A DNA stretch of 64,000 nucleotides, taken from Enterobacter phage CC31. This document shows, in pieces, positions 34,042 through 53,832 of this stretch. Position 1 is the first letter of the stretch. Every line of letters starts with the position of its first letter. A program made the translations under genes and the position numbers. The stretch lies in sequence record NC_014662.1, one strand, 5' to 3'. The notes below the pieces were generated by a model. It was not told where the DNA came from. It worked only from the letters and a program-made list of their open reading frames with translations, and made no database searches.

Positions 34042-34061
34042 AATGTGGGCCTTCGGGCCCA

Positions 34062-35670: not shown

Positions 35671-35912
35671 TGGAAGATTTCATCTCCGCACTCAAATCCA
35701 ACGACCTCGTTAAAGCAAAGAAAGCCTTTGGTGCTATTATGCTTGAACAGACCGCTGATTTGATTAGCCAACGTCGTGTTGAGATTGCCCAATCTATTAT
35801 GATTGAAGGCGAAGAAAAAGAAGACGACGAAGACGAGAATGATGATTCTGAAGATGAAGGTAAAGAAAAACCTGAATCTAAAGATGAAAAAGATTCTGAA
35901 GACGAAGACTAA
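35670..35912 (+). CDS. 67: gp67 prohead core protein
   Basis: 80 aa, highly acidic C-terminus; between 20 and 68. Confidence 0.85.
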   Translation: MEDFISALKSNDLVKAKKAFGAIMLEQTADLISQRRVEIAQSIMIEGEEKEDDEDENDDSEDEGKEKPESKDEKDSEDED

Positions 35913-35927
35913 GAATAAGGAGTCGCA

Positions 35928-36353
35928 ATGCTGATTGTTCCTGATGAGTACGAAGTCGTACTTGAAAACATCGAAGCAGCTATTCCTGAAGCCGAATCTC
36001 GTTTTAAGCAGTTGTCAGAAGCTCTCGATAAAGCAGACATAAATACAATTGTAGAAAACATGTTGCCAATTGAACCTGAAGTAGCAATTGCTATGGGTTC
36101 ACTGAATGAAGAAATGCAGCTCAATGAATTTATCGTTAAGCATGTTTCTTCTCGTGGAGAAATTACGCGTACTAAAGACCGTAAAACCCGCGAGCGTCAA
36201 GCATTCCAAACAACTGGTTTATCTAAAGCTAAACGTCGCGCTATCGCTCGAAAAGTCGTTAAGTCCAAACGCGCTAATCCGTCTGGTACTGTACGAGGCA
36301 ACCGCAAACGTAAGAAAGCTATGAAACGTCGTCAGGCGTTAGGATTAAGCTAA
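35928..36353 (+). CDS. 68: gp68 prohead core protein
   Basis: 141 aa; synteny. Confidence 0.85.
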
Positions 36354-36994
36354 TGAATGAACCCCAATTACTCATTGAGCATTGGGGTCAACCCGGCGAA
36401 ATTTTGAATGGCGTACCGATGCTTGAGTCATACGATGGCTCAGATGCTGGGCTAAAACCTGGATTATACATCGAAGGCGTGTTCATGCAAGCCGAAGTAG
36501 TTAACCGAAATAAGCGTCTTTATCCAAAGAGAGTGTTGGAAAAAGCCGTAGCTAATTATATTAAAGAGCAGGTTTCTACTAAACAAGCACTTGGAGAATT
36601 AAATCACCCACCACGTGCTAACGTTGACCCGATGCAAGCCGCAATCATCATCGAAGATATGTGGTGGAAAGGAAACGATGTTTATGGACGAGCTCGTATT
36701 ATTGAAGGTGACCACGGTCCTGGAGATAAACTCGCTGCAAACATTCGTGCTGGCTGGATTCCTGGAGTATCTAGTCGTGGACTAGGCTCATTAACGGAAA
36801 CCAATAAAGGCTACCGTATCGTAAACGAAGGATTTAAACTCACCGTTGGCGTTGATGCTGTGTGGGGACCTTCTGCACCAGATGCTTGGGTAACTCCGAA
36901 GCAGATTTCGGAATCCGCTGAGGCGCAAGTCGCCAAAAAGAATGACGATGAGTCATTTAAAGCTCTCGTAGAGAGTCTCGAAAAAGCATTATAA
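36353..36994 (+). CDS. 21: gp21 prohead core protease
   Basis: 213 aa (T4 212); synteny. Confidence 0.9.
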   Translation: MNEPQLLIEHWGQPGEILNGVPMLESYDGSDAGLKPGLYIEGVFMQAEVVNRNKRLYPKRVLEKAVANYIKEQVSTKQALGELNHPPRANVDPMQAAIIIEDMWWKGNDVYGRARIIEGDHGPGDKLAANIRAGWIPGVSSRGLGSLTETNKGYRIVNEGFKLTVGVDAVWGPSAPDAWVTPKQISESAEAQVAKKNDDESFKALVESLEKAL

Positions 36995-36997
36995 ATA
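36990..36997 (+). promoter_or_regulatory. Late promoter box TATAAATA for gene 22
   Basis: Exact TATAAATA overlapping gene 21 stop, 31 nt upstream of gene 22. Confidence 0.65.
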
Positions 36998-37027
36998 ATA
37001 ATGTAACTTAACAACAGGACTAACAAA

Positions 37028-37843
37028 ATGCTGAAAGACATCCTGCTCCAGGAAGCTCAGAATATTGAAGCTACCGTAGCTGTGGACAGTATTTTCGAAT
37101 CGGTCGAGCTTTCTCCGGAAGTAAAAGCGAAGTTCGAAACTGTATTCGAAGCAACTGTAAAGAAACATGCCGTTGAACTGGCTGAATCCCACATTACCAA
37201 AATTGCTGAAATGGCTGACGAAAAGCTGAAAGATGCTAAAGACGAAGCCGAAGAAAAAGCTGAAAAGAAACTGACTGAACATGCTTCTCGTTTCTTCAAT
37301 CACATCGCTCAAGAATGGATGAATGAAAACAAACTGGCTGTTGATAAAGGCATCAAAGCTGAACTGTTTGAATCCATGTTCGCTGGTATGAAAGAACTGT
37401 TCGTTGAACACAACGTTGTTCTGCCAGAAGAATCAGTTGATGTAGTTGCTGAAATGGAAGAAGAACTGGCTGAAGCTCGTGAAGAAATCAGCAATCTGTT
37501 CGAAGGTATTTCTGCTCGCGACGAAAAAATTAATACCATGCTGCGTGAAAGCGCTGTAATGGAATCAACTAAAGACTTGACCGACGTTCAGAAAGAGAAA
37601 GTAGCTTCTCTGACCGAAGGTATGGAATATTCCGACGAATTCTCAAGTAAGCTGTCTGCCATCGTCGAAATGGTTAAAGGCTCCGTCGAGAAAGAGGTAG
37701 TAAATGAAAGCATAAATACTACCGACAATGATGCTGACGGTCTCAACTTCATTACTGAAGAACATATTGAGCCAGAAGAAAAAGTATCAAAACAGCCATC
37801 GATGATGGACGCATACGTAGCCTCTGCGGCACGTCTTTCTTAA
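37028..37843 (+). CDS. 22: gp22 prohead scaffold
   Basis: 271 aa acidic coiled-coil; synteny. Confidence 0.9.
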   Translation: MLKDILLQEAQNIEATVAVDSIFESVELSPEVKAKFETVFEATVKKHAVELAESHITKIAEMADEKLKDAKDEAEEKAEKKLTEHASRFFNHIAQEWMNENKLAVDKGIKAELFESMFAGMKELFVEHNVVLPEESVDVVAEMEEELAEAREEISNLFEGISARDEKINTMLRESAVMESTKDLTDVQKEKVASLTEGMEYSDEFSSKLSAIVEMVKGSVEKEVVNESINTTDNDADGLNFITEEHIEPEEKVSKQPSMMDAYVASAARLS

Positions 37844-37865
37844 TTTTTAAAAGGTTATAAAACAC

Positions 37866-39428
37866 ATGAAAAAGATTAATCCGTTAGTAGAAAAATGGAC
37901 TCCGCTGCTTGAGAACGAAGCACTGCCTGAAATCGTTGGTGCTGGTAAAAAAGCTCTGATTGCAAAAATCATGGAAAACCAGGAATCAGCTATTAAAACT
38001 GAACCTGCATTCCGTGATGAAAAAATCGCTGAAGCATTTGGTTCGTTCCTGACTGAAGCAGAAATTGGTGGTGACCACGGTTATGATGCTCAGAACATCG
38101 CTGCTGGCCAAACCTCTGGTGCAGTAACTCAGATTGGACCAGCTGTTATGGGCATGGTACGTCGTGCAATTCCTAACCTGATTGCTTTCGACATCTGTGG
38201 TGTTCAGCCAATGAGTTCTCCTACCGGTCAGGTATTCGCTCTGCGTGCCGTTTACGGTAAAGACCCTCTGGCTGCTGGTGCTAAAGAAGCATTCCACCCA
38301 ATGTACGCTCCAGATGCAATGTTCTCTGGTCAGGGTGCTGCTGAGAAATTCGCTGCTGTAAAAGCTGCTGACGTTCTGACTGTTGGTACTATCGTAGTTC
38401 ACGATTTCGCTGATGTTGGTCGCGCTTACTTCCAGGTTGCTGAAGGTTTCACAGTAGATGCTGGTGCTACCGATGCTGAAAAACTGGATAAAGCAGTTAA
38501 AGCTGCTGAAGAAGCTGGTCAGCTGGTAGAAATCGCTGAAGGTATGGCTACCTCCGTAGCTGAACTGCAGGAAAACTTCAACGGTTCTACTGATAACCCA
38601 TGGAATGAAATGGGCTTCCGTATCGATAAACAAGTTATCGAAGCTAAATCCCGTCAGCTGAAAGCTCAGTACTCTATTGAACTGGCTCAAGATTTACGTG
38701 CTGTTCACGGTATGGACGCGGATGCTGAACTGTCTGGTATCCTGGCTACCGAAATCATGCTGGAAATCAACCGCGAAGTTGTAGATTGGATTAACTACTC
38801 TGCTCAACTGGGTAAAACCGGTATGACTCAGACTGTTGGTTCTAAAGCTGGTGTATTTGACTTCCAGGACCCAGTAGATATTCGTGGCGCTCGTTGGGCA
38901 GGTGAAAGCTTCAAAGCTCTGCTGTTCCAAATCGACAAAGAAGCTGCTGAAATCGCACGTCAGACTGGTCGTGGTGCTGGTAACTTCATCATCGCTTCTC
39001 GTAACGTAGTTAACGCTCTGGCAGCTGTTGATACTGGCGTTACTCCTGCTGCTCAGGGTCTGGGTCAAGGCTTCAATGCTGATACCACTAAGACTGTGTT
39101 CGCAGGTATTCTGGGCGGTCGTTATAAAGTATACATCGACCAGTACGCTCGTCAGGACTACTTCACCATTGGTTACAAAGGTGCTAACGAGATGGATGCT
39201 GGTATCTACTACGCTCCATACGTTGCTCTGACTCCACTGCGTGGTTCCGACCCTAAAAACTTCCAGCCAGTCATGGGCTTCAAAACCCGTTACGGTATTG
39301 GTATCAACCCGTTTGCTGATAGTGCATCACAGCAGCCGAATGCTCGCATTCAGTCTGGTATGCCTTCTATCGTCAACTCTGTTGGTAAGAACGCGTACTT
39401 CCGTCGCATCTGGGTTAAAGGTCTGTAA
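37866..39428 (+). CDS. 23: gp23 major capsid protein
   Basis: 520 aa; long stretches identical to remembered T4 gp23 (GAVTQIGPAVMGMVRRAIPNLIAFDICGVQPM). Confidence 0.97.
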   Translation: MKKINPLVEKWTPLLENEALPEIVGAGKKALIAKIMENQESAIKTEPAFRDEKIAEAFGSFLTEAEIGGDHGYDAQNIAAGQTSGAVTQIGPAVMGMVRRAIPNLIAFDICGVQPMSSPTGQVFALRAVYGKDPLAAGAKEAFHPMYAPDAMFSGQGAAEKFAAVKAADVLTVGTIVVHDFADVGRAYFQVAEGFTVDAGATDAEKLDKAVKAAEEAGQLVEIAEGMATSVAELQENFNGSTDNPWNEMGFRIDKQVIEAKSRQLKAQYSIELAQDLRAVHGMDADAELSGILATEIMLEINREVVDWINYSAQLGKTGMTQTVGSKAGVFDFQDPVDIRGARWAGESFKALLFQIDKEAAEIARQTGRGAGNFIIASRNVVNALAAVDTGVTPAAQGLGQGFNADTTKTVFAGILGGRYKVYIDQYARQDYFTIGYKGANEMDAGIYYAPYVALTPLRGSDPKNFQPVMGFKTRYGIGINPFADSASQQPNARIQSGMPSIVNSVGKNAYFRRIWVKGL

Positions 39429-39439
39429 TCCAATTAAAT

Positions 39440-39468
39440 GGGAGCCGCAAGGCTCCCATTGTTGTTTC
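39440..39468 (+). terminator. GCAA-tetraloop hairpin plus T-rich tail after gene 23
   Basis: gggagccGCAAggctccc followed by attgttgtttct. Confidence 0.6.
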
Positions 39469-39513
39469 TACGGATGATAAATAAAAGTATAATCCACTAG
39501 AGGAAAAGCGACG

Positions 39514-40797
39514 ATGGCTAACATCCATGACCTTCTGCGCGAATCAACTACAACGACGAGTTCAATTTCTGCCCGTCCTAGCCTCGTTGCATTGACTCGC
39601 GCTACTACTAAATTAATTTACTCTGATATTGTAGCTACTCAGCGTACTACTCAACCTACTGCTGCTTTCTACGGTATCAAATATTTGAACCCTAACAAAG
39701 AATTAACGTTCCTTACTGGTGCTACCTACGCAGGTCAAACTGGTACTGAGGACCGTAAATCTATTGAAACATTAACTGCTTCAAATAAAGATTCATTTGG
39801 CAAGGGTGATTTGTTCAAATACGATGACATTGTTTACAAAGTACTTGTAGATAATCCATTTGACCAGATTACTGAAACTGATTTAGAAGTTGTAATTCAG
39901 ATTTCTCTGGTTAAACTCACTACTCGTTTAATGTCTGACGCTGCTATCACTTCCAAGTTTGAAACTGCTGGAGCTGATATCGCTGAAGCTAAATTCCAAA
40001 TTGATAAATGGCAGACTCAAGTTAAATCTCGTAAACTTAAAACGAGCTTGACTGTTGAATTGGCCCAGGACCTTGAAGCTAATGGCTTTGATGCTTCCAA
40101 TTTTATCGATGATTTACTGGCTACTGAAATGGCCGATGAAATTAACAAAGACATTTTACAAAGTCTTGTGACAGTTTCAAAACGATATAAAGTTGAAGGT
40201 ATCACAGATACTGGATTCATCGATTTATCTTATGCATCTGCTCCAGAAGCTGGTCGTTCTCTGTATCGCATGGTATGCGAAATGGTTTCTCATATTCAGC
40301 GCTCAACATCCTTTACGGCAACATTCGCTGTAGCATCTACTCGTGCTGCTGCTGTTCTTGCTGCATCAGGTTGGTTGAAGCATAAACCTGAAGATGATGA
40401 TTATCTGTCACAGAACGCTTATGGTTTCCTGGCAAACGGTTTGCCTCTGTATTGCGATACTAACACTCCACTCGATTATGTAATCGTCGGTGTAGTAGAA
40501 GATATTGGTGATAAAGAAGTTGTATCGAGTATTTTCTATGCTCCATACACTGAAGGTATCGACCTTGATGACCCGGAACACGTTGGTGCATTTAAAGTAA
40601 TTGTTGACCCAGAAAGCTTACAGCCTTCTGTAGCTTTATTCGTTCGTTATGCATTGTCTGCTAACCCGTATACTGTAGCTAAAGATGAAAAGGAAGCTCG
40701 AATCATTGATGGCGGGGATATGGATAAGATGGCAGGACGTTCTGATTTATCAGTTCTTCTTGGTGTTAAGTTACCAAAAATCATCATTGAAGACTAA
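39514..40797 (+). CDS. 24: gp24 capsid vertex protein
   Basis: 427 aa (T4 427); gp23-like fold motifs. Confidence 0.92.
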   Translation: MANIHDLLRESTTTTSSISARPSLVALTRATTKLIYSDIVATQRTTQPTAAFYGIKYLNPNKELTFLTGATYAGQTGTEDRKSIETLTASNKDSFGKGDLFKYDDIVYKVLVDNPFDQITETDLEVVIQISLVKLTTRLMSDAAITSKFETAGADIAEAKFQIDKWQTQVKSRKLKTSLTVELAQDLEANGFDASNFIDDLLATEMADEINKDILQSLVTVSKRYKVEGITDTGFIDLSYASAPEAGRSLYRMVCEMVSHIQRSTSFTATFAVASTRAAAVLAASGWLKHKPEDDDYLSQNAYGFLANGLPLYCDTNTPLDYVIVGVVEDIGDKEVVSSIFYAPYTEGIDLDDPEHVGAFKVIVDPESLQPSVALFVRYALSANPYTVAKDEKEARIIDGGDMDKMAGRSDLSVLLGVKLPKIIIED

Positions 40798-40803
40798 AAG
40801 AAA

Positions 40804-40826
40804 GGGAACCTCACGGTTCCCTTTTG
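40804..40826. terminator. Bidirectional hairpin terminator between gene 24 and convergent minus-strand gene
   Basis: gggaaccTCACggttccc followed by tttt on plus and T-rich run on minus. Confidence 0.6.
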
Positions 40827-40829
40827 TAG

Positions 40830-41375
40830 TTATAAAGCAAATATATCGAATGTTGGTGCGTATTTTTCTTTAAATCTCTGATAGATTTCTTTCTCGTACA
40901 GATTGTAGCAAGGTATACCATGACGCTTGGCTATATCAACGGCCACTCGTGTCCCTCCAGTAACGCTAGAGAGTTTTATTGGAGCATAGAATAGTACCAT
41001 ATCCACAGGTGACTGGCAATCCTCTCCGAGCACCTGAAGTGCATTGCGGGCAAATAGAGTCTTCACTATATCCCGGCACTCATCCCAGTAGCTTGTCACT
41101 TCTCTTGCTTTAATTACACTCCTGATTCTCACTTCATTTGGAAAGTCTTTCCACACCTTTACTCCAACTCCAGTTTTAAGACCATTGAAGCCTTCGTATG
41201 GTATGATACGTAATGAACGTTCACGGTCGTATCTACTGAGCCATGATTCATCTGCACCAGGAGCACCTCCCGAATACGAAAAATGGCCTGACTCCGAAAG
41301 AGCCTGACCAGTTAATGACATGACATCTAAAACACGACGTGGCGTCTCTCGAGAACCGATTAACGCCAAACGCAT
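40830..41375 (-). CDS. DprA/Smf-like Rossmann (SLOG-type) protein
   Basis: 181 aa; LALIGSRETP and SGGAPGADESW resemble DprA motifs (GSR; SGxARGxD); no T4 counterpart recalled at this position. Confidence 0.5.
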   Translation of the reverse strand: MRLALIGSRETPRRVLDVMSLTGQALSESGHFSYSGGAPGADESWLSRYDRERSLRIIPYEGFNGLKTGVGVKVWKDFPNEVRIRSVIKAREVTSYWDECRDIVKTLFARNALQVLGEDCQSPVDMVLFYAPIKLSSVTGGTRVAVDIAKRHGIPCYNLYEKEIYQRFKEKYAPTFDIFAL

Positions 41376-42379
41376 TAGTTACTTACCAGTTCAATCCAAA
41401 CTGGACGAATTACGCCTTGCACGTAATTGACAAGTTCTTTCTTGACTACATCAGGATTATCAGCGTCAGTAATGAAGATTTCTTCACGGCCAGCTTCTTC
41501 CAGAATATCCTGGACAGTAAGACCCATAACTTTACCAAAGTCCTTTGGACCAACTTGGCCAATCTTACTGATAACGTTATTGACTCGGTTCAGAGTAGCA
41601 TAAGCTGCCAGCGTAGAGAAAGCAACCTTATCAACATCAGTTAATTCAACCTTAGCTTTAATAGGCTTATCGGATTTAGCTTTCTCAGAGAACTTGGAGT
41701 TCTTGCATTTAATAGCTACGCGAGAACCATTAGGGAAAAATTTAGGGTAGCATGGTTTCAGAACGTAGCCTTCGGCGATATTACTTTCTGATACAACCGC
41801 TTGGAATGGCATAGTATTAGCTTCTTCAAGACCATGAGCTTCAATAGCTTGATTATAGCGATTAACTACAACATCCAGCATATTAGGAATTTGAATCAGG
41901 TCATCGAATTTACCACGGCCCAGAAGTGGAGCCATTTTAAACCCAAAGACGTTACACATACGTTCCATCATAAAATCATCAACGTAAGACGATTCACCTG
42001 ATTCGGTAGTCACTTTAATATCAAAGACGTAGAAGTCTTTTTCACCGTAATCAACACCCTTCTGAATTCCGCCGCCAGCAAATTCACCAAAGATTTGATA
42101 AGCTACTGTAGCACCAGTCAGTGCAGCTTGAACAGCTTTAAAGGACTCGTTATAACGACCCATGATAACCATATAGCCAAAGAAGTCTTCTGCTGGCAGA
42201 ATAGGACCAGTACGCTTGGCAGGTTGGATGCTATCTTTAGTTACGATAACAGAGAAGTTAGTGCCGTGAATTTTCTCACGCGCTACCCAAGTTTCAGAGA
42301 CATCAAAACCAGCATTACGAATACGCTCAATGAATTTACCGTTGTAGTGGTTCTCGAGCGTTGAATATTTCTCAAACAT
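41375..42379 (-). CDS. rnlB: RNA ligase 2 (Rnl2)
   Basis: 334 aa (T4 334); adenylylation site [13 protein letters not shown]; [25 protein letters not shown] match T4 Rnl2. Confidence 0.95.
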
Positions 42380-42387
42380 ATTTCACC

Positions 42388-42648
42388 TTAGAATTTAATT
42401 TTGAAAGATTTGCCCTGGTAGTCAGAATTGAACTCATAAGAGAACTTTTCTTTATTCAGGAATCCTTTTATAGCGGTTTCATGAGAATACCACTCACTTG
42501 GAATAATATAAAGGGCTTCAAACTTGCCGCGGGCGGCAGCGTCGCGAAGATGGTCTTCAATATGGGTTTGAACTTCTTTTGGTAAATTTGTATTAGCTGA
42601 CTCAGCCATATTCCTGTAGAAATTAGCAAGACTCATTATAATCACCAT
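42388..42648 (-). CDS. Hypothetical protein (T4 24.2 position)
   Basis: 86 aa ORF. Confidence 0.5.
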   Translation of the reverse strand: MVIIMSLANFYRNMAESANTNLPKEVQTHIEDHLRDAAARGKFEALYIIPSEWYSHETAIKGFLNKEKFSYEFNSDYQGKSFKIKF

Positions 42649-42750
42649 ATAAATATCAATAATTAGGGAGGGTTCTATCCTTCTATCGTCAAGCGTATGT
42701 ACTAGAAAGAATCCGTGAAACCATTATACCACGCGGATTCTTTAAGCATA

Positions 42751-43332
42751 TTATAGAGGGATTACTTTATACTTCTTATTGCCACGAGCATCACGCTTAC
42801 AAACTAATTTGCACTTCATGCCGCTTGTGATAGTGTAATCTTCATCAACCTTCATCCGCATCCAGTCTAATACCATTCCAGATGGGTTCAAAGATTTTTC
42901 AACTTCAACCATAATTTTAGTGCCAGACTTATAAAACTTAGATTCTTGTTGCTCATAGTCAGATAGTGCGCGAGCAAACGCAGATGGGCTTAAGAATTTA
43001 TTATAACCGTGAGCAGCAGCCACAAATGTATTATCTAAAGCATGTTTGATATTTTTGATTACGACTGTTGCGTAACCGATGTGTTTTTCTGGATAGTGAG
43101 TCATTACAAAGTCCTCATGAACTGCGAAAGTTTTTTGATGACGAGATTTTACATCAACATTTGATAAGCGTTTACGATAAACCACTTTCTCTTTTCGTTT
43201 AGATTTAGCTTTTGCCGATTCAACTTTAGCATAATATAAAGCTGCTTCTTCGGGTTTAATACCCGCTTCTCTCGCAATTTCAATAAAACTCAATCCGCAC
43301 TCATGCTTAAAATGAATCTCAATCGGTGTCAT
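42751..43332 (-). CDS. Hypothetical protein (T4 24.3 position), possible N-terminal HTH
   Basis: 193 aa ORF; basic. Confidence 0.5.
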   Translation of the reverse strand: MTPIEIHFKHECGLSFIEIAREAGIKPEEAALYYAKVESAKAKSKRKEKVVYRKRLSNVDVKSRHQKTFAVHEDFVMTHYPEKHIGYATVVIKNIKHALDNTFVAAAHGYNKFLSPSAFARALSDYEQQESKFYKSGTKIMVEVEKSLNPSGMVLDWMRMKVDEDYTITSGMKCKLVCKRDARGNKKYKVIPL

Positions 43333-43385
43333 GGTAATATCCTACAGTAAAAGATGTTGATATAATACCACTCTCCAGAAAAAGC

Positions 43386-43412
43386 AAAAGGAGCCTTCGG
43401 GCTCCTTTTAAT
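43386..43412 (-). terminator. UUCG hairpin terminator downstream of hoc
   Basis: ggagccTTCGggctcc flanked by T-runs on both strands. Confidence 0.55.
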
Positions 43413-44218
43413 AGATGATACCAGCTTCTAAAGCTGAACGATGAACAATACGTCCATTACGTGATTCTTGAACATCAACTTCAGGGTAGTCTTCAATCAT
43501 TTTAGCTAACGTAGCCAAATGACAGTAATAAGGAGTATCAGAAGCGGTTGCAGTTTTCCAGTCTTTACCTTCTTCAGTAAGTTTCTGAATTGCATCCATA
43601 ACCCACCAACCAGCCCAGATATAAGCACTAGAGCGATGCGGAAGTGGATGAACATAGAGAATTGGGCATTCGTCTGGAACAACTGGCTCGGCAGCTTCAA
43701 CTGTAATATTCAGCACATTTGAAGTTTTAACAGTGTCTTCGTATCCAGTTGCTTTAGCAGTTACTTCACATGTTAAAGCAACATTTCCTTCCGTTTGAGC
43801 TACTGCACTAATATCAGCCGTAGTTTCTCCGGTTGACCATTTGTAAGCAAGAGTTGCTCCTGATGGTTGACCTGTTACTCCACAGGTTGCACTATAGCTT
43901 TCACCAACTTTAACAGTTTGAGACTGAGCTGAAATAGTAACAGTAAGATTCATAACGTCATTTACTGTTAAGTTAGTAGTTGCGGTTTGAATATCGTCTG
44001 GGTCTTCACCAGCTTTAGTGGTTGAAGTAACTTTAACTACTTTAGTTCCAGCCGAGTCAGCGGTGTAATCCAAAGTATCAGTCACAGATGATTGTACTAC
44101 AACCATTCATAAGTTATAGTTGCTCCTTCTGGCGCTCCGTTAACAGTTGCTGTAAACTGTTGTGAATCTCCAACTTTGATAGTGGGATTTAGAGGAGTTA
44201 AATCTACTGTAGTAGCCA
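43408..44218 (-). pseudogene. hoc: hoc (Ig-like outer capsid protein) interrupted by frameshift
   Basis: N-terminal frame MATTVDLTPLNP..ITYEWL stops at 44099..44097; remainder runs in the other frame from ATG 44106; C-terminal ECPILYVHPLPHRSSAYIWAGWWVMD..DYPEVDVQESRNG matches T4 Hoc capsid-binding domain. Confidence 0.7.
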
Positions 44219-44252
44219 TATAATTTCCATTATTTAAGAGGGACAAGCCCTC

Positions 44253-45008
44253 TTATGATAAAGTTACAAATGAAGAGTTTCGGGTTTCTCTTACTTGAAC
44301 TGAACCATTACGTTTGATGTAATAAATCAAGCTCAAAAGAGTTTGATGAGCAGTAGGATGCTCAAATGACAGTGGTCTAGATTTCCAATCTGGATTTTCA
44401 AGAATCCACTGATAAATCCACCAAGGAAGAGTAGCATAACCTGGATTACGCCCAATTAAATGCAGAGATGGACTGAAATCAGCCGGAAGCTCGAATGTGT
44501 CAGTTTCAATAACTTTGACAACTTTATCCATAGCTTCATTAAATTCATCTTGGGTCATATTCCCTACTGGAATTTTATGAACTTCGCCGTCATCTGAAAC
44601 TGCAATAACAGAATCACCAATCGGAGCTTCAAGGATTACACCTTTAACTGAGTCCATTGGCTTACCAAAATGAGGGTCGATATCAGTTACTTTCACTTGT
44701 GGTGCGTCAGCAGATACAGAATCAATCAATAGACGAGCTTCTTCTTTAGCTTCATCTTTAAAAATAGCAGTGCCTTTGGCTTCATCATCAGCTTGAATGA
44801 GGTCATAAATTGAAAGACCGTCATTATCTTCTGGCATAGGTTCTTCTGCTAGTTTAGCCAATTCGACTTCAAGGTCAGCGACCATATTGTCGAAGGCTTT
44901 AGTTTTCTTCAGCTTAATACCGAAGGTTTCAGCGTACTCGGCAAGCTTCTCTTTGGCTTCTTTTTTCTCAAGTGCACCGATTTCAGCAATATAATCTTTA
45001 TCTAACAT
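44253..45008 (-). CDS. inh: Inh-like protein (prohead protease inhibitor position)
   Basis: Start set at MLDKDYIAEIGAL; position between hoc and uvsW as T4 inh; identity not verified by motif. Confidence 0.6.
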   Translation of the reverse strand: MLDKDYIAEIGALEKKEAKEKLAEYAETFGIKLKKTKAFDNMVADLEVELAKLAEEPMPEDNDGLSIYDLIQADDEAKGTAIFKDEAKEEARLLIDSVSADAPQVKVTDIDPHFGKPMDSVKGVILEAPIGDSVIAVSDDGEVHKIPVGNMTQDEFNEAMDKVVKVIETDTFELPADFSPSLHLIGRNPGYATLPWWIYQWILENPDWKSRPLSFEHPTAHQTLLSLIYYIKRNGSVQVRETRNSSFVTLS

Positions 45009-45023
45009 AGTAGCCTCGTTGTG

Positions 45024-45045
45024 TATAAATATAAATGTATTTATA
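45024..45045. promoter_or_regulatory. Divergent late promoter boxes (TATAAATA on plus for uvsW; on minus for inh/hoc)
   Basis: tataaata at 45024..45031 and tatttata at 45038..45045. Confidence 0.55.
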
Positions 45046-45060
45046 ACTAAGGAATCGGCA

Positions 45061-46563
45061 ATGCACGATATCAATGTAAAATTTCATGATTTTAGTCATG
45101 TGTTTATTGAATGTGATGAATCCACATTTCATGAACTAAGAGACTATTTTAGTTTTGAAGCTGATGGCTACAAATTCAATCCAAAATACCGTTATGGGCA
45201 TTGGGATGGACGTATTCGTCTTCTGAACTACGATCGTCTGCTTCCGTTTGGCCTCGTCGGACAAATCCGCAAATTCGCTAATAGTATGGGTTATTCAGTT
45301 TACTTCGAACCGAAGATTTTTGAGACTGAAGAAATTACTCGTGAAGCGTTTGATGATTGGCTGGGCAATCTCAATATTTACTCTGGGAGTAAAAAGATTG
45401 AGCCTCACTGGTATCAGAAAGATGCAGTGTTTGAAGGATTAGTTAATCGCCGTCGAATTTTGAACCTTCCAACGTCTGCTGGTAAATCTTTAATTCAATG
45501 CTTACTTGCTCGTTATTATGTTGAGAATTATGAAGGTAAAATTTTAATCATCGTTCCAACAACAGCATTAGTAGACCAGATGATTAACGACTTCTGTGAT
45601 TATCGTCTATTTGGTAAACAACATTGTCTTGGTATTCGTTCAGGTACAAAGCGTGATTCTGATGCAATGATTTATGTTGCCACCTGGCAAACAGCAGTAA
45701 AACAGCCAAAAGAGTGGTTCCATCAATTCGGCATGATGATGAACGATGAATGCCACCTGGCTACCGGTAAGTCTATTTCTACTATCGTTGCTGGTCTAAA
45801 TAACTGCATGTTTAAGTTCGGCTTATCCGGTTCATTAAAAGACGGAAAAGCTAATATCATGCAATATGTTGGAATGTTTGGTGAAATTTTCAAACCAGTT
45901 TCAACATCACAGCTTATGGAAGATGGACAAGTAACTGACTTAAAAATTAACTCTATTTTCCTTCGGTACCCGGATGAGTTTACCGTCAAAATGAAAGGTA
46001 AAACTTATCAAGAAGAAATTAAAGTTATTACAAATGCAAAACGTCGCAATAAATGGATAGCTAATCTTGCAGTAAAATTGGCTAAGCGAGACGAAAATGC
46101 ATTTCTGATGTTTAAACACGTGGCTCACGGTAAAGAGCTATTTGAAATGATTAAAGAACTTGGGTATGAGAAAGTGTATTATGTTTCAGGGGAAGTTTCT
46201 ACTGAAGTTCGTAATGCTCTGAAGGTGATGGCTGAAAATGGAACAGGAATTATCGTAGTTGCGTCTTATGGCGTTTTTTCTACTGGCATTTCTGTAAAGA
46301 ATCTCCATCATGTTATTTTAGCTCACCCAGTTAAATCAAAAATTATCGTTCTGCAAACAATCGGTCGCGTACTTCGTAAACATGATTCTAAATCAGTTGC
46401 TACAGTATGGGATATCATCGATGATATGGGTGTTAAACCAAAATCAGCAAATGCTAAGAAAAAATATGTTCATTTGAACTATGCTTTAAAGCACGCGCTG
46501 GAGCGCATTCAAAGATATGCAGACGAAAAATTCAATTACGTAATGAAACAAATCGATATTTGA
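45061..46563 (+). CDS. uvsW: UvsW DNA/RNA helicase
   Basis: Start at MHDINVKFHDFSHV; Walker A PTSAGKS, DECH box MMNDECHLATGKS match T4 UvsW. Confidence 0.95.
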   Translation: MHDINVKFHDFSHVFIECDESTFHELRDYFSFEADGYKFNPKYRYGHWDGRIRLLNYDRLLPFGLVGQIRKFANSMGYSVYFEPKIFETEEITREAFDDWLGNLNIYSGSKKIEPHWYQKDAVFEGLVNRRRILNLPTSAGKSLIQCLLARYYVENYEGKILIIVPTTALVDQMINDFCDYRLFGKQHCLGIRSGTKRDSDAMIYVATWQTAVKQPKEWFHQFGMMMNDECHLATGKSISTIVAGLNNCMFKFGLSGSLKDGKANIMQYVGMFGEIFKPVSTSQLMEDGQVTDLKINSIFLRYPDEFTVKMKGKTYQEEIKVITNAKRRNKWIANLAVKLAKRDENAFLMFKHVAHGKELFEMIKELGYEKVYYVSGEVSTEVRNALKVMAENGTGIIVVASYGVFSTGISVKNLHHVILAHPVKSKIIVLQTIGRVLRKHDSKSVATVWDIIDDMGVKPKSANAKKKYVHLNYALKHALERIQRYADEKFNYVMKQIDI

Positions 46564-46570
46564 GGAAGTT

Positions 46571-46801
46571 ATGAAAACATTCGAAGAAGTCATTTACGAA
46601 GCTACTATCGACACGTTTATGAGTAAGATTGCTCAGTGCCAAACTTTAGAAGGTTTAGAAGAACTGGAAGCTTATTACAAAAAGCGTGTTAAAGAAGCTG
46701 ACCTGAAAGATACTGATGATATCTCTATTCGAGATGCATTGGCAGGAAAAAGAATGGAATTTGAATCTGAAGATGAGTCAGAATCAGAAGAAGAATTCTA
46801 A
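46571..46801 (+). CDS. uvsW.1: UvsW.1
   Basis: 76 aa acidic ORF directly after uvsW. Confidence 0.7.
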   Translation: MKTFEEVIYEATIDTFMSKIAQCQTLEGLEELEAYYKKRVKEADLKDTDDISIRDALAGKRMEFESEDESESEEEF

Positions 46802-46808
46802 TAAAAAA

Positions 46809-46835
46809 GGCCCCTCAAAAGAGGGGCAAACCACA
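46809..46835 (-). terminator. Hairpin terminator downstream of uvsY operon
   Basis: gcccctcAAAAgaggggc with T-run on minus strand. Confidence 0.5.
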
Positions 46836-46854
46836 AGTGGCATAAAACACTAGG

Positions 46855-47046
46855 CTACATTAAAAGTTGCGTTTCGTTTAATTGCTCTTCTGCGCTTTCG
46901 CTTACCGGCAATTCAATCGCATAATTATAACAAGCACCTGGATGAACAGGGCCTTTATCTGTTTCAACAACCAACGCCGAATCAATCGGTTGCTTACAGA
47001 CAGCACAAATCTTTTCAGACATGATTGTCTCCTCAGTTATTAACAA
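46855..47046 (-). CDS. UvsY.-2-like small Cys protein
   Basis: 63 aa ORF with CxxC pair, downstream of uvsY. Confidence 0.55.
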   Translation of the reverse strand: MLITEETIMSEKICAVCKQPIDSALVVETDKGPVHPGACYNYAIELPVSESAEEQLNETQLLM

Positions 47047-47055
47047 TTCTATTTA

Positions 47056-47475
47056 TTAGTCGCCTGCTTCAAACCTACGCATATCAATAATGTGCTTGAT
47101 TGAAAATCCGCGAGACTTAATAGCATCCATCGCATCGCGACAGAACTCTAACAAAATTCCCCAGTATTGCAAACTTGTATCAATACGAAGAACTTCTTTA
47201 TCGGCAGACAGAACAGTCTTCATCTCAGACTTTTCATAACGGTCCATGCTGAACTCGTCACCATCACCTCTACCTGTATAGTAATCCAACTTCTGCTTTA
47301 ACGCGGACTTCTTCGAAGCCTCGATGCGAAGCATTTCTTTACGAATAGCAGACAATTTTGTCAACCACTTACCATAAAGAACTGGATTATTAGCTGCTTC
47401 ATACTGCAATTTAGTTGAATCAATAATCAAATCTTGTTTCAACTCTTCCTGTAAATCTTCAAGCTTCATAATCAC
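47056..47475 (-). CDS. uvsY: UvsY recombination mediator
   Basis: LEDLQEELK..DSTKLQYEAANN..GRGDGDEFSMDRYEKSEMKTVLSADK matches T4 UvsY. Confidence 0.95.
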   Translation of the reverse strand: MIMKLEDLQEELKQDLIIDSTKLQYEAANNPVLYGKWLTKLSAIRKEMLRIEASKKSALKQKLDYYTGRGDGDEFSMDRYEKSEMKTVLSADKEVLRIDTSLQYWGILLEFCRDAMDAIKSRGFSIKHIIDMRRFEAGD

Positions 47476-47545
47476 CTTTCTTTGTTCAATTTGTTACTCT
47501 AGCAAGGAACTCAAAACCATTATAACCATCTTGAAATAAAAGCGA

Positions 47546-47944
47546 TTAGTTACGGCTTGAGCTTGCCAATTGAAGCTTAATCTGTTCAAGGTCGTCCGGG
47601 TTGTCAATGACGGAGAACTGAACTTCAACGATAAGCGTGTAATCATCGTAAACCGGAGTGACGTTCACCTGAAGACGACGAATGCGTGGTTCATAGTTTC
47701 TTATAGCAGATGTGATGTTTCGTTCTACTGTGTCAGCCGTAAGAGGAGTCATGTTCTCGAAAAGCTGGTCTTGTAAATCACACCCAAAGTTAGGGTCAAA
47801 TGGACGGCTTCCCTTTCTTGTTGTTATAATACCTAAAAGAGAGTTTTTAATTGCTCGTAACCCACGAGCACGTGCAACGTCTTTGGACCAGTTCATTTTA
47901 AGTTCAGGGTCCAAATCCGAATAAAGGTCGTTTATATTTGCCAT
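47546..47944 (-). CDS. 25: gp25 baseplate wedge
   Basis: 132 aa (T4 132); synteny. Confidence 0.9.
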   Translation of the reverse strand: MANINDLYSDLDPELKMNWSKDVARARGLRAIKNSLLGIITTRKGSRPFDPNFGCDLQDQLFENMTPLTADTVERNITSAIRNYEPRIRRLQVNVTPVYDDYTLIVEVQFSVIDNPDDLEQIKLQLASSSRN

Positions 47945-48573
47945 TACAGATACCTGAAGAATTCTTTAAGGCCTTTAATCACTTCAACGTGAGTTGCTCC
48001 GCATTTCTGACATTTCACAGGAACTGCTAGATAAACGGTAGGCTTTAAAAGCATATTTTTGATGCGGATAATATCCTCTTCAGTGATAGCTGAGTAAAGG
48101 TCATCGATTTCTTTGTCATTCAAATCTTCGATTGAAATGGTTTCACCATTCACATAGATGTACTCGATACACGTAGCAATCATCTGTGCGATGTTTTTAT
48201 CATCGAATAATTTTGGATAACGAAGCTTAAGTTTAAAATTCGCTAGAGGATACCAGAGTTCCTCTGGTTCATCGATTTGTGCAGATGTAAAGTTAATCGG
48301 CGTTAATGTTTCGTGACCTTCTGGACATATCCAGATGTTCTCATGATTAACCTCACCTAATGAGTGAGACCATAACTGAATCAGCAGAAGTTCTGACTCT
48401 TGCTTGTTAAGGTTTCGTGCTGATGTACAATTATTAATCAGCCGTTTTACTACTTCACCAATGTTTCCATTGATTTTGCCATCGATGAGCTCTTTGTATT
48501 CTTCTAACGTAAAAGCTCTGCATTGGATATCAGAGCCATTAATCTGGACTTCAAATTTGTAATCGTAGTTCAT
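47944..48573 (-). CDS. 26: gp26 baseplate hub
   Basis: 209 aa (T4 208); synteny. Confidence 0.85.
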   Translation of the reverse strand: MNYDYKFEVQINGSDIQCRAFTLEEYKELIDGKINGNIGEVVKRLINNCTSARNLNKQESELLLIQLWSHSLGEVNHENIWICPEGHETLTPINFTSAQIDEPEELWYPLANFKLKLRYPKLFDDKNIAQMIATCIEYIYVNGETISIEDLNDKEIDDLYSAITEEDIIRIKNMLLKPTVYLAVPVKCQKCGATHVEVIKGLKEFFRYL

Positions 48574-48590
48574 ATTAGCTCCTTACGGAC

Positions 48591-48602
48591 TATTTATAAA
48601 TA
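48591..48602. promoter_or_regulatory. Overlapping divergent late promoter boxes (gene 26 on minus, gene 51 on plus)
   Basis: Palindromic tatttataaata: tatttata 48591..48598 and tataaata 48595..48602. Confidence 0.6.
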
Positions 48603-48622
48603 TTTCAATAAAGGAGACCTCT

Positions 48623-49375
48623 ATGGCCAATATAATTCGTTGTGTACTACCGGACGGGGTCCATCGTTTTAAACCCTTCACGGTAGCTGATTACAGAGAT
48701 TTCCTTCTGGTTCGTAATGATATGCAACATAAAACTTACGAAGAGCAGAAGGTGATTATAAAAGAACTTTTAGCTGATTACTTTGGTGAATATCCTGAGA
48801 CTTTACGTCCATACATGTTCATGAAGGTATTCACTGGCTCAATCGGTAAAACAAAAATTCCAGTAGCTTTCACCTGTCCGACTTGCGAAAAACAAAAGCA
48901 AGTTCTGTTTGACATCAGCCAAGAAGATTTGGTTGAGCCTACTATTGAAGTTGCCGGAATCACAATAGCTTTTAAATTCCCTGAGAAGGAATACGAAGAT
49001 AAAGCTGCAATGATTTACGATTGCATTAAAGCAATTAAATACAACAATCAATGGTATCCTTGGAAAGAGATGTCAGAAGACAACCAAATCCAAGTGATAG
49101 AAGCAATTGACTTTACAACGTTTGAAAAGATTTACACTCAACTAACTCCAATGAGATTTGAACTTAAAATGAAATGTTGCGAGTTAAGAACAAACGTGTA
49201 TGAAGACATTTTATCAGTCTTTAAGCTTCTTATAAACCCAGATGAAATTTTTAGCTTCTATCAAATCAATCACACTCTGGTTAAAAGTTCATATGATTTG
49301 AACAGCATAATGGGTATGATTCCAATCGAGCGAAGCATCGCCCTTTCGTTAGTAGAGAAGGACAATAAGAAATGA
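48623..49375 (+). CDS. 51: gp51 baseplate hub assembly catalyst
   Basis: 250 aa (T4 249); synteny. Confidence 0.85.
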
Positions 49376-50556
49376 CAGTACTACAACGTCCAGGTTTTCC
49401 TAACTTAAGCATAAAGCTCTATGAAAATTACGATGCTTGGTTAGATAACCGTTTCCTTGAATTAGCAGCAACTGTAACGACACTCACTATGCGTGATGGT
49501 CTTTATGGCAGAAATGAAGGGATGCTGCAATTTTATGATAACAAAAATATGCATACCAGAATGAATGGTGACCAAATCATTCAGATTTCTGTGGCCAATG
49601 CAAACAGTAAAAGAACATTGAACCGCATTTACGGTTGTAAGCATTTTTCAGTTTCAGTTGACTCTAAAGGCGATAACATCATCGCAATTCAACTTGGATT
49701 GGTGCACGAGATTATCAACCTCAAGTTTAGTCGTTGTTTCTTCAACGATGCTGGTGAGTCAATTAAAGAGATGATTGGTGTAATTTACCAAGAAACTCCT
49801 CATATTGCTCCAGCTATAAACTCGATTAACACCTACGTTCCACGGGTTCCATGGACGAGTACGTTAAAGGACTATTTAGCTTGGGTTAGAGAAATTTCAC
49901 TTGCCGTTGAAAGTGACCAATTCGTATTTGTGTGGGAAGACATCTATGGCATTAACATGATGGACTATGCATTTATGATTGCACAAGAGCCTATCCCGGT
50001 TGTGGTCGGTGAACCAAGACAAATCGGTCAAATGGTTAATGAGTTGAATACGGACTTGGCATATGACTTTGAATGGCTCACTAAAGCTAACCAATTTACC
50101 CGAAACCCAATGGCTAACGCTACATTTTATGCTCACAGCTTCTTGGATAATCAATTCCCTCGAATTGTTACGGGCGATGGTTATAACTCGGTGTTAGTGT
50201 CTCGTTCAGGTTCATATTCTGAAATGACTTATCGTAACGCATACGAAGAAGCTCTGCGATTAGGAACGATGGCACAATATGATGGTTATGCTAAGTGCAC
50301 GATGGTTGGTAATTTTGAATATACTCCAGGTCAAAAGATAAACTTCTTTGACCCTAAAAACCAATTCCGCACAAACTTTTACGTAGATGAAGTTATTCAT
50401 GAAGTTTCTAATAACGAATCAATAACTACATTGTATATGTTTACTAACGGACAGAACTTAAGTCCAGTAGAACCAATTAAGGTGAAAAATGAATTTAAAC
50501 CTAATACTTCCAATGAAAACAATTCAAGTGAACCAGAAGGAAATAAAAATTCCTAA
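49372..50556 (+). CDS. 27: gp27 baseplate hub
   Basis: 394 aa (T4 391); synteny. Confidence 0.9.
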
Positions 50557-51016
50557 GCTTGGATTGAAGCATCACAACATGCTGAAAGAAGTTAAATCTC
50601 CGGAAGAGAATTTATCTCTGCTGATTAATTCAATTCATCCGGGTTTAACACCAGCCGAAATCGATTACGTTTCAATTCATTTACTTGAGTTCAACGGTAA
50701 GATTAAAAGTAAGGTAGTCAAAGACGATTTTGAATATGACCTTTCAACTTTAAGAATTGTTCAACGATTAGAATTTCAATTCGCTGGTCATACTTTCAAA
50801 TTCAGAGCTCCTGAGCAGTTTGAAGGATTTGGCGGTGTTGATAAGATGCTTTCAAAATGCCTTGAAACGGTAGACGGTAAAAAAGAAGATGTCGACTTCA
50901 TGAAGATGCCAGCATTTGTGACCAAATGGGCAGATGACATTTCAAGTACCGTAGCAGTAAGCGGCCCTAATGGCGACATCAGAGGAGTTGCCAAAATCAT
51001 AGGAATTTTTGAATGA
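50489..51016 (+). CDS. 28: gp28 baseplate distal hub
   Basis: 175 aa (T4 177); ATG preceded by AAGGTG; overlaps gp27 end by 68 nt. Confidence 0.8.
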
Positions 51017-52773
51017 AAACCGAAAACATGAAGACTATGCGTCGGAAGGTTATTGAAGAGGGTCGTAGTGAAAGAGATGCAGCGAAAGCTGCATCAACTC
51101 AAGCCGAATCTTTATCAGTTCTTTCTTCACAGCTTGATGATTTACAAACTCAAGCTGAGCTTACGTCTGAAGTAATTGAGGATAAAGGTAATCAAGTTAT
51201 TGATGCCTTGAATCGAGTTGACCAAAGCATAATTGATACTACTGCCGGGGCTGAATTAACTGCCGAAGCATCTGAAAGAACCACGGAAGCTGTTAAGCAA
51301 CAGACCGAAGTGTCAAACAAGATTTCAGATAAGCTCAGTAAGCTGACTGAACTTTTAAATGAACGTCTTTCAGCTATCACTCCGAATCTTCCGCAGATAT
51401 CTGTTCCCGATACATCTCTGTCTGTAGTTGAAGATGCAGTACCTGTTGATATAGTGACACCAGGGTTACCAGAGTTACTTCAGGAGTTAATTCCTGACCC
51501 TGTCAATAATACCAATAACCCTAACGATGCGTTCTTCCCTACCGTTCCAGAGAACCCAGAGAGTGATTCTAAAAAGGGAGCTGACGAGGAACGTAAGAAG
51601 AAAGACTCTGACACTCTGAGTAATCTGCTTAAAGCTACAAAAAGTGGATTTAAGGCTTCAATGAGTATCACGGATAGAATAGCTGGAATGCTTTTCAAGT
51701 ACACGGTAACTGCTGTGATTGAAGCTGCTAAAACAGCCGCATTGCTGTTCTCTATTGTGCTCGGTATCGATGTCATAATGAAGCACTTCAAATATTGGTC
51801 AGACAAATTCACTTCAGACTTTGATAAGTTCTCTGCTGAAGCTGGCGAATGGGGAAGCACATTATCATCTATATTCGGAACACTTGAAAACATTCAGAAG
51901 TTCTGGGAAGCTGGAGACTGGTCTGGATTGACTGTTGCTATTGTAAAAGGCGTAACTGAAATCATTTACAACCTCAGTGAACTCATTTCTTTAGGAATGT
52001 CAAAAGTAGCTGCCGCTATTCTTTCACTTATTCCTGGCTTAGGAGATGCTGCATTATCTGTTGAAGGAGCTGCATTAGAAGGTTTCCAAGAAAGAACCGG
52101 TAACTCTCTTTCTAAAGAAGACCAAGATACATTAGCTAAGTATCAATCATCTAAGATTGAAAAAGGCGAAAACTTCTTCGATAAAGTATCTCAAGGTAAA
52201 ACTTGGATTGTTAACAAAATAACTGGAGATGCTAACATTTCTGATTTTGTTACAGACGAAGAAAGAACAGCTCAGAACGAAAAACTCCGTCAGATGAAAC
52301 CTGAAGAAAGGGAACAAGTTCTGAAGAAAGGTAATGAAGCTCGTGCTGCTATTGTCAGATTTGAAAAATACATGGAACAAATCAATCCTGACGATAAACG
52401 TTCAGTTCAATCAGCTGATAAAGCATACGCTAATCTTCAGACACAGTTAAATGACACTGACCTGAATAATTCTCCTATTACCAAAAAAGAATTAAATGCT
52501 CGTATGAATATTGTTACTGCTAAGTATGATAAGCTCAAAGGCAAAGAACCACAGCCTGCTCCATCATCTCAATCTGAAGATGTTAAAAAAGTCGAAAGTA
52601 TCGAGAAGAATAAAGCAGCTGAAAAAGCTTCATTAGGAACTGGCGCAGGAGCTGCAGCAGCTAACTTGTTCAATACAAACAACGTCATTAACAACAGTAG
52701 AACTATAAATACTGTTAGTCCTGTAACGAGCACTAATGCTCCAGGCGTATTTGGTGCAACTGGTGTTAACTAA
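51013..52773 (+). CDS. 29: gp29 tail tape measure
   Basis: 586 aa (T4 590); synteny. Confidence 0.9.
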   Translation: MKTENMKTMRRKVIEEGRSERDAAKAASTQAESLSVLSSQLDDLQTQAELTSEVIEDKGNQVIDALNRVDQSIIDTTAGAELTAEASERTTEAVKQQTEVSNKISDKLSKLTELLNERLSAITPNLPQISVPDTSLSVVEDAVPVDIVTPGLPELLQELIPDPVNNTNNPNDAFFPTVPENPESDSKKGADEERKKKDSDTLSNLLKATKSGFKASMSITDRIAGMLFKYTVTAVIEAAKTAALLFSIVLGIDVIMKHFKYWSDKFTSDFDKFSAEAGEWGSTLSSIFGTLENIQKFWEAGDWSGLTVAIVKGVTEIIYNLSELISLGMSKVAAAILSLIPGLGDAALSVEGAALEGFQERTGNSLSKEDQDTLAKYQSSKIEKGENFFDKVSQGKTWIVNKITGDANISDFVTDEERTAQNEKLRQMKPEEREQVLKKGNEARAAIVRFEKYMEQINPDDKRSVQSADKAYANLQTQLNDTDLNNSPITKKELNARMNIVTAKYDKLKGKEPQPAPSSQSEDVKKVESIEKNKAAEKASLGTGAGAAAANLFNTNNVINNSRTINTVSPVTSTNAPGVFGATGVN

Positions 52774-52782
52774 GGAATAATC

Positions 52783-53832
52783 ATGGCTATAAGAGCTACA
52801 GAAATTCTAGATAAAGCTTTCGGCAGTGGAGAAAAGACCTCTGCCGGCCAAAGCTCTATTTCATCAACTCGAAGAAGTACTGTAACAGCTCAATATCCGG
52901 CAGAACGTTCTGCCGGTAACGACGCTGCAGGAGACCTTCGTGTTCATGACCTTTATAAGAACGGATTGCTGTTTACTGCATACGATATGAGTTCAAGAAC
53001 GACTCCCGACCTTCGTAGTATGCGTCAATCACAATTGAGTAAATCAGCAAGTTCTATTCTCAATAGTCTTGGAATTAAAAACAACGGACAAGTCGATAAA
53101 TCTCCGATTGCGAATATTTTACTTCCACGTTCTAAATCAGACGTTGAATCAATATCACACAAGTTCAATGATGTTGGTGATTCATTAATGACTCGTGGTA
53201 ATAACTCAGCTACTGGAGTATTGAGTAACGTTGCATCTACAGCAGTATTTGGTGCATTAGATTCAATCACTCAAGGTCTGATGGCTGACAATAACGAGCA
53301 AATCTATAACACTGCACGAAGCATGTATGCGGGCGCAGATAACAGAACGAAAGTATTCACTTGGGATTTGACTCCTCGTTCAGTGGCGGATTTGGTTTCA
53401 ATTATTCAAATATACGAGTACTTTAACTATTTCAGCTACGGTGAAACCGGTAATTCAACTTATGCTAAAGAGTTGAAAGGACAATTAGATGAGTGGTACA
53501 AAACAACTCTGTTATCTCCATTGACTCCAGATGGAGCTGATTTGAATAACACAATGTTTGAAAATATCACTTCATTCTTAAGTAATGTTATTGTTGTGAC
53601 TAACCCAACGGTATGGTTCATCAGAAACTTTGGTAAGACATCTAAATTCGATGGAAGAGCTGAAGTGTTTGGCCCATGCCAGATTCAGAGTATTCGCTTC
53701 GATAAAACTCCGAATGGTCAATTCAATGGTTTAGCAATTGCTCCTAATATGCCAAGCACATTCACTCTGGAAATTACTTTCCGTGAAATCTTGACACTGA
53801 ACAGAGCATCACTTTATGCAGAAGGTTTCTAA
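52783..53832 (+). CDS. 48: gp48 baseplate tail-tube cap
   Basis: 349 aa; synteny. Confidence 0.85.
   Translation: MAIRATEILDKAFGSGEKTSAGQSSISSTRRSTVTAQYPAERSAGNDAAGDLRVHDLYKNGLLFTAYDMSSRTTPDLRSMRQSQLSKSASSILNSLGIKNNGQVDKSPIANILLPRSKSDVESISHKFNDVGDSLMTRGNNSATGVLSNVASTAVFGALDSITQGLMADNNEQIYNTARSMYAGADNRTKVFTWDLTPRSVADLVSIIQIYEYFNYFSYGETGNSTYAKELKGQLDEWYKTTLLSPLTPDGADLNNTMFENITSFLSNVIVVTNPTVWFIRNFGKTSKFDGRAEVFGPCQIQSIRFDKTPNGQFNGLAIAPNMPSTFTLEITFREILTLNRASLYAEGF

Follow-up and report, generated by a model that had tools for sequence, protein, structure and literature searches.

A 10-bp deletion splits hoc of Enterobacter phage CC31, most likely a recent loss of function in a dispensable decoration gene

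The decoration protein Hoc of phage T4 (376 aa; PDB 5vf3 chain Z, 8t1x and 8t9r) is encoded by an intact gene and carries three immunoglobulin-like (Ig) domains, and Hoc is nonessential under laboratory conditions (PMC10385173). The Hoc of the lineage of Enterobacter phage CC31 belongs to the same family but has two Ig domains. Database-wide, Hoc lengths fall into classes of about 180, 273, 360-376 and 468-472 aa. Six Karamvirus hoc loci, with flanking genes ~93-95% identical to those of CC31, encode proteins that differ in their number of Ig domains, namely one (185 aa), two (273 aa) or three (373 aa). KMB17, myPSH1140 and PS49 have natural one-Ig Hocs (177-185 aa); they comprise the C-terminal domain and one Ig domain and result from clean in-frame domain deletions, in which Ig1 was retained, Ig2 is lacking and the gene remained a single ORF. 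The intact 185-aa one-Ig hoc of myPSH1140 (NC_055739; locus L008 ~1515..2072) has no CDS annotation in RefSeq or GenBank, which is an annotation gap and not a pseudogene. Judged from such sequence comparisons, the number of Ig domains is evidently a fast-evolving, modular character of Hoc.

A described counterpart of the gene reported here is the hoc of the Karamvirus PG7, which a frameshift also divides into two overlapping ORFs (AHI61102.1 and AHI61101.1), deposited as “putative split head outer capsid protein.” The lesion itself is different and independent: in comparison with KaAlpha and fGh-Ecl01, at 99.2-99.5% identity, the PG7 gene (KJ101592, locus L002 1091..2213) carries a 1-nt insertion, CCAAAC[C]AGC, at ~locus position 1524, which is ~codon 145 of a three-Ig Hoc of 373 aa. 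Although Fokine et al. (2023) count the 233-residue piece of PG7 as a second, shorter Hoc (PMC10385173, section 3.6), this alignment indicates that it is rather the 3' fragment of a frameshifted hoc.

Phage CC31 is from sewage, comes from the Karam laboratory and was isolated on E. coli B strain S/6/4 (PMC2993671). Hoc is not mentioned in the overview of its genome given in the same paper, and a literature search found no paper discussing the hoc of this phage. The window examined here is a stretch of 64,000 nt of the CC31 record (NC_014662.1), and all positions refer to it unless stated otherwise. The hoc region reads as follows:
44097..44219, minus strand: hoc ORF-A, 40 sense codons plus TAG (ATG 44219..44217, TAG 44099..44097), GenBank ADB81680.1
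43408..44106, minus strand: hoc ORF-B, 232 codons plus TAA (ATG 44106..44104, TAA 43410..43408), GenBank ADB81679.1
44253..45008, minus strand: inh (inhibitor of prohead protease), intact and directly upstream of hoc, 251 aa from the ATG at 45008

Translation of the minus strand gives MATTVDLTPLNPTIKVGDSQQFTATVNGAPEGATITYEWL as the product of ORF-A. ORF-B lies in the -1 frame relative to ORF-A, and its AUG, 7 nt upstream of the ORF-A stop, overlaps with that UAG by 10 nt in all. Directly upstream of the ORF-B ATG the -1 frame is shut by a TGA (44109..44107), so that both frames are open together, and a frame switch is possible, solely in the 7 nt of 44106..44100. An earlier note, based on the letters of the window, had described a hoc gene split by a frameshift with a permissive stretch of about 7 nt, and both statements are confirmed by this reading, as are the 232 codons of ORF-B, its ATG and the TAG of ORF-A; the first part of the gene, however, has 40 sense codons and not the 38 given there, and it begins at 44219 rather than at 44218. 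CC31 thus possesses no single uninterrupted full-length Hoc coding sequence but 40 + 232 codons in different frames.

The split itself is already public. An exact-sequence look-up showed that the products of both ORFs have been deposited for Enterobacter phage CC31 (165,540 bp), i.e., the 40-aa “head outer capsid protein” (ADB81680.1/YP_004010042.1) and the 232-aa “Hoc-like head decoration” (ADB81679.1/YP_004010041.1); GenBank, therefore, carries both pieces as Hoc CDSs, and the split implies no new mechanism. The copy of CC31 in IMG/VR is identical to window positions 43904..45836. Identification of the gene as hoc is solid, since over residues 2-273 the intact ortholog aligns to T4 Hoc (PDB 5vf3 chain Z) with E=1.7e-71 and the genomic position is T4-like, downstream of inh, beside uvsW and upstream of 24.3-like genes and rnlB, an arrangement that CC31 shares with all relatives compared. 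The inh gene is contained in a longer ORF (44253..45074); a length of 251 aa is also that of the annotated inh of phage vB_VIPECLUMC02 and of the inh of two further loci (L005 and L006), in which the domains Phage_Inh_N and Phage_Inh_C are present.

Comparison with relatives reveals what separates the two ORFs:
44101..44102, minus strand: deletion junction, at which the 10 nt CAGTTGATGA are absent between GAATGGT and TGTAGTAC in the pairwise alignment to vB_VIPECLUMC02

Phage vB_VIPECLUMC02 (genus Karamvirus) is the closest relative in GenBank, with 95.6% identity over the region. Its hoc (WFG78914.1) is uninterrupted (822 nt, 273 aa) and 96.6% identical to the CC31 gene at the nucleotide level, and the alignment of the two contains one gap only, of 10 nt, between otherwise collinear flanks; blastn places the deletion at window position 44102. 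Two more intact alleles were found, in an ENA assembly (171,540-bp contig, 97.3% nucleotide identity) and in a Logan assembly (104,339-bp contig, 98.4%), and a fourth is known as a 273-aa protein; the identity range of 96.6-98.4% refers to the three intact alleles with DNA. The intact alleles share with CC31 the inh-hoc-24.3-like-rnlB context and an identical start, stop and terminator. All four include the deleted segment, and alleles of the vB_VIPECLUMC02 type, which have CAGTTGATGA, encode one uninterrupted two-Ig Hoc, whereas CC31, lacking these 10 nt, has 40 + 232 codons. Putting the 10 nt back in silico restores a 273-aa Hoc ORF. Among the five known alleles of the two-Ig hoc the deletion is unique to CC31. 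The comparison with related phages that the earlier note had proposed, therefore, establishes the split as peculiar to CC31; it also rules out the single-base lesion that the note had implied, as the four intact alleles show one gap of 10 nt, and the test suggested there, a single-base error that restores one frame, is inapplicable in that form. On the basis of this deletion, CC31 hoc is, in sequence terms, a disrupted member of the Hoc family, either a pseudogene or a truncated allele.

The missing CAGTTGATGA, three codons plus one base, encodes part of the motif W-SVDD-V, the lost residues being S40-V41-D42-D43. T4 Hoc has TITYAWSVDN where the intact relatives have TITYEWSVDD, which makes the intact state of hoc the ancestral one. 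Columns 40-43 are free of gaps in 21 homologs (54-99% identity), W39 and Q46 do not vary, and D42 is conserved at 90% or more. Clustering at 90% identity gives seven independent clusters (72-99% identity to the query), each of them exactly 273 aa long, and the 232-aa product is encoded by one contig in a collection of 15 billion proteins. A 28-mer across the junction occurs in IMG/VR only in the entry of CC31 itself and a 22-mer across the junction had no match in JGI metagenome contigs, but the positive control, a 32-mer of the intact allele, is also absent from both collections and these scans are, therefore, uninformative on the frequency of the deletion allele.

Possible routes to the deletion were read from the alignment. 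Microhomology-mediated deletion was rejected, as no base is shared at either end of the 10-nt gap, and a simple slippage in one event does not, therefore, explain the loss. The gap can also be written as deletions of 4 nt and 6 nt, each with short repeats, which is less parsimonious. A mutation templated by a quasi-palindrome was considered because the junction makes an 8-bp RNA hairpin (AUGGUUGU-AGU-ACAAUCAU), but this structure is weak and non-significant (see below) and needs a G-U pair, so that there is no perfect palindrome in the DNA; this candidate was dropped.

The consequences for the protein can be read from its domains. The intact protein matches Pfam Big_2 (Ig-like) at residues 2-71 (28.8 bits vs. 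a cutoff of 22.8) and ORF-A retains this match over residues 2-37, corresponding to profile positions 2-38 of 79; the break thus falls in the middle of the Big_2 match, and the deleted residues belong to a stretch of conserved length. In the confident AlphaFold2 model (AF2; mean pLDDT 86.7) of the closest intact allele, beta-sandwich blocks extend over residues 4-91 (Ig1) and 96-178 (Ig2), and the helical capsid-binding domain begins at ~residue 185. The model places strands of Ig1 at residues 4-8, 13-15, 19-27, 34-41, 52-56, 61-72 and 79-91, and the break at residue 40 within strand 34-41, which bears the invariant Trp. ORF-A accordingly encodes the first three predicted strands of Ig1 and most of the fourth, and neither fragment can form Ig1. 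The parts left in ORF-B are:
43954..44106, minus strand: remnant of Ig1, 51 residues, with limits from the AF2 model and the T4 Hoc alignment
~43690..43953, minus strand: Ig2, complete, with limits from the AF2 model and the T4 Hoc alignment
43411..43686, minus strand: capsid-binding C-terminal domain, complete, by sequence match to this domain

Residues 141-232 of ORF-B (43686..43411) match the C-terminal domain of the intact ortholog with 100% identity, so that ORF-B carries a Hoc C-terminal domain; this domain has >50 invariant columns among homologs, and the intact ortholog aligns to T4 Hoc through residue 373 of the latter. The two Ig domains of the ancestral allele are thus represented in CC31 by a complete Ig2 and by an Ig1 split over two frames at strand 34-41. 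No second Hoc-type domain was found within the window.

The gene lies in a putative transcription unit comprising inh and hoc, with these signals:
45038..45045, minus strand: T4-type late promoter motif, an exact TATAAATA upstream of inh
43385..43410, minus strand: intrinsic-terminator-like hairpin of 11 pairs with a T-run, overlapping the hoc stop codon

By analogy with T4, the motif at 45038..45045 is the probable start of an inh-hoc late transcript, and the sequence of the strong terminator-like hairpin is identical in vB_VIPECLUMC02. With motif and terminator intact, an inh-hoc mRNA is probably still made. In the window as a whole TATAAATA occurs at 18 sites vs. 3.9 expected by chance, among them 45024..45031 on the plus strand and 48591..48602 on both strands; some of these motifs are arranged back to back as divergent pairs, in the interval between inh and uvsW and where baseplate genes of opposite orientation adjoin.

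For an impression of the quality of the record beyond hoc, the window was compared with vB_VIPECLUMC02, to which it aligns in a single blastn HSP of 58,235 columns (window 5064..63241, 92.9% identity). This HSP contains 35 indels that are not a multiple of three. Those within genes form compensating clusters, i.e., alignment wobble in divergent stretches, and the remaining ones are intergenic or in the tRNA region. This leaves just two uncompensated frame changes in coding sequence, the hoc deletion and an extra A in an adjoining small gene of unknown function; the many essential genes for head, tail and baseplate that the window contains are all unbroken. In the part of the tRNA cluster that aligns to vB_VIPECLUMC02 (window 5064 onward) there are 11 1-nt indels in ~600 nt (~5240..5860), a density far above that in the rest of the 58-kb alignment. 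The second frame change is located as follows:
43131..43136, minus strand: run of six A within ORF 42751..43332 (minus strand), A6 vs. A5 in five relatives, ~970 bp from the hoc deletion

The extra A fuses a 75-aa DUF2774 (24.3-like) gene to the next gene of 117 aa, yielding the 193-aa CC31p182 (ADB81678.1), while the other members of this protein cluster are all 117 aa long (12/12), and removal of one A brings the arrangement of 75 + 117 aa back. This run could reflect real slippage or a homopolymer sequencing error.

It is appropriate to ask whether the hoc deletion could itself be an artefact, in which case the living CC31 would have an intact 273-aa hoc and the 10 nt would have dropped out during assembly or editing of the 2010 GenBank record, for instance where contigs were joined or where coverage was low. 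The deletion allele is indeed known from the single CC31 record, and two CC31-only frame changes ~970 bp apart, one of them (A6 vs. A5) of the classic homopolymer error type, could mark a weak patch of the 2010 assembly. However, a 10-nt gap in complex sequence is an atypical error for Sanger sequencing or pyrosequencing, and the gap in hoc lies in sequence that is neither repetitive nor homopolymeric; the single base in a short run by which PG7 hoc is disrupted is much more compatible with a sequencing error. The original submitters, moreover, annotated both halves as CDSs and left the sequence uncorrected. Random errors are also not expected to spare the essential genes, which make up most of the window, and to strike dispensable ones only, and within the entire HSP uncompensated frame-breaking indels are absent from all essential genes, an outcome predicted by selection on real mutations. 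The sequencing indel that the earlier note had listed as one option is thus weakened, and we regard such an artefact as rather unlikely and infer a biological mutation rather than an error in the record. Far less probable still, to the point that we reject it, is another option of that note, programmed recoding, by which a -1 ribosomal frameshift or transcriptional slippage in 44106..44100 would fuse ORF-A and ORF-B into a 271-aa Hoc. Programmed -1 frameshifting does occur in phage genes such as the tail assembly chaperone G/GT, in which two ORFs overlap, the second is in the -1 frame, and both a slippery heptamer and the two-frame layout are conserved across relatives. The CC31 gene resembles these in geometry, with a short overlap and a downstream ORF in the -1 frame, which is the sole argument in favour, but lacks the conserved heptamer and the conserved layout. 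The overlap (AUGGUUG, 44106..44100) reads U-AUG-GUU-GUA-G in the -1 frame and UGG-UUG-UAG in frame 0, so that there is no heptamer of the X XXY YYZ type, and direct reading reveals no possible tRNA re-pairing in the -1 frame; nor is there any run of >2 nt in 44097..44110 on which transcription could slip. RNA structure does not stand out either: the 103 nt from the overlap downstream fold with z=-1.53 (15 of 200 shuffles fold as well), the local region with z=-1.23, no different from shuffled controls, and the junction hairpin that covers both AUG and UAG is non-significant (-5.6 kcal/mol, z=-1.0). A two-frame hoc layout was found in none of the relatives, as the four closest alleles are all single ORFs, and so are all 120 homologs among the matches listed, with which the CC31 fragments do not cluster. 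The fused product would, furthermore, still miss the conserved segment that includes D42.

Another possibility concerns what becomes of the split gene and refines a genuine deletion rather than excluding it, namely that termination at the ORF-A stop is followed by reinitiation at the overlapping AUG (AUGGUUGUAG) and that ORF-B is thereby made as a shortened Hoc. Ribosomes ending at the UAG (44099..44097) might restart at the AUG (44106..44104), and such a restart would give 232-aa molecules in low quantity, composed of half of Ig1, the whole of Ig2 and the capsid-binding domain; these would bind capsid hexamers through their C-terminal domain and show one intact Ig domain, like the natural one-Ig Hocs. 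Reinitiation is conceivable because the AUG lies only 7 nt before the stop and because neighbouring annotated genes overlap by 1-17 nt in many pairs in the close relative vB_VIPECLUMC02. The intact promoter motif and terminator, the preservation of a complete Ig2 and C-terminal domain and the lack of secondary lesions in ORF-B are also in line with this possibility, and the one-Ig Hocs of sister phages, whose size class an expressed ORF-B would approach, suggest that a shorter Hoc can be a functional design. These, however, keep Ig1 intact, whereas ORF-B retains Ig2 preceded by an unfoldable half of Ig1 and has no ribosome-binding site of its own. No Shine-Dalgarno sequence was found 4-13 nt upstream of the restart codon, where the sequence is GGAGCAACUAUAACUUAUGA-AUG and the sole GGAG stops 16 nt short of the AUG, so that any restart should be weak and inefficient, and the weak, non-significant hairpin mentioned above covers this AUG. 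The 51-residue remnant of Ig1, without the first four predicted strands, cannot fold as an Ig domain and could destabilise the product. That a functional ORF-B product is made in this way seems to us unlikely, though slightly less so than an artefact. That ORF-B is re-expressed and decorates the capsid as a single-Ig Hoc, providing a snapshot of how Hocs lose Ig domains, is a more speculative proposal, to which we give a lower probability than to either.

A genuine 10-bp deletion in the sequenced CC31 stock, i.e., a recent knockout of the nonessential hoc gene, is in our opinion the probable explanation, and the comparison with relatives thereby supports the remaining option of the earlier note, that a dispensable decoration protein has been inactivated by a real mutation. 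The deletion would shift the frame and translation would stop after 40 codons, and the full-length two-Ig Hoc would consequently not be made by CC31; this lesion would be tolerated since Hoc is dispensable in the laboratory for T4-type phages. Eight changes in hoc are specific to CC31 when polarised with the three intact DNA alleles, five synonymous and three conservative non-synonymous (I150V, A161T and A166T), where neutral expectation is 76% non-synonymous (one-sided binomial p=0.022). ORF-B contains neither another stop nor another indel, and with no second defect in these 232 codons the lesion looks evolutionarily young. The mostly synonymous changes suggest that hoc was under purifying selection for most of the CC31 branch, from which we infer that the deletion is recent, or else ORF-B is still useful. 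The deletion may have arisen during laboratory propagation.

CC31 is not left without candidates for docking at the Hoc site. PG7 encodes a 511-residue protein in which an N-terminal Hoc-type capsid-binding domain is fused to a GDSL lipase (PMC10385173). The same protein in vB_VIPECLUMC02 (locus L015 5300..6835) shares 39% identity with the C-terminal domain of Hoc across 67 residues (E=9e-15) and has a match to PF13472 (GDSL lipase/acylhydrolase) at 4.5e-18. CC31 keeps an intact 511-aa copy, 96% identical, outside the window (CC31 contig 5305..6840; locus L018 1001..2536), and, judging from its domains, this protein might take the Hoc site in place of an absent Hoc. If ORF-B were re-expressed, the balance at the hexamer centre between Hoc and the intact lipase fusion could change.

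The split of hoc in CC31 is most likely a recent loss-of-function mutation in a dispensable decoration gene, an ordinary knockout that involves no new mechanism. CC31 is the type phage of its group, and its reference genome encodes no full-length Hoc, which is relevant to capsid display, to structural work and to comparative claims on the architecture of Hoc. Fragments of a frameshifted hoc may, furthermore, be mistaken for genuine short variants of Hoc, as has apparently happened in the literature with the 233-residue piece of PG7.
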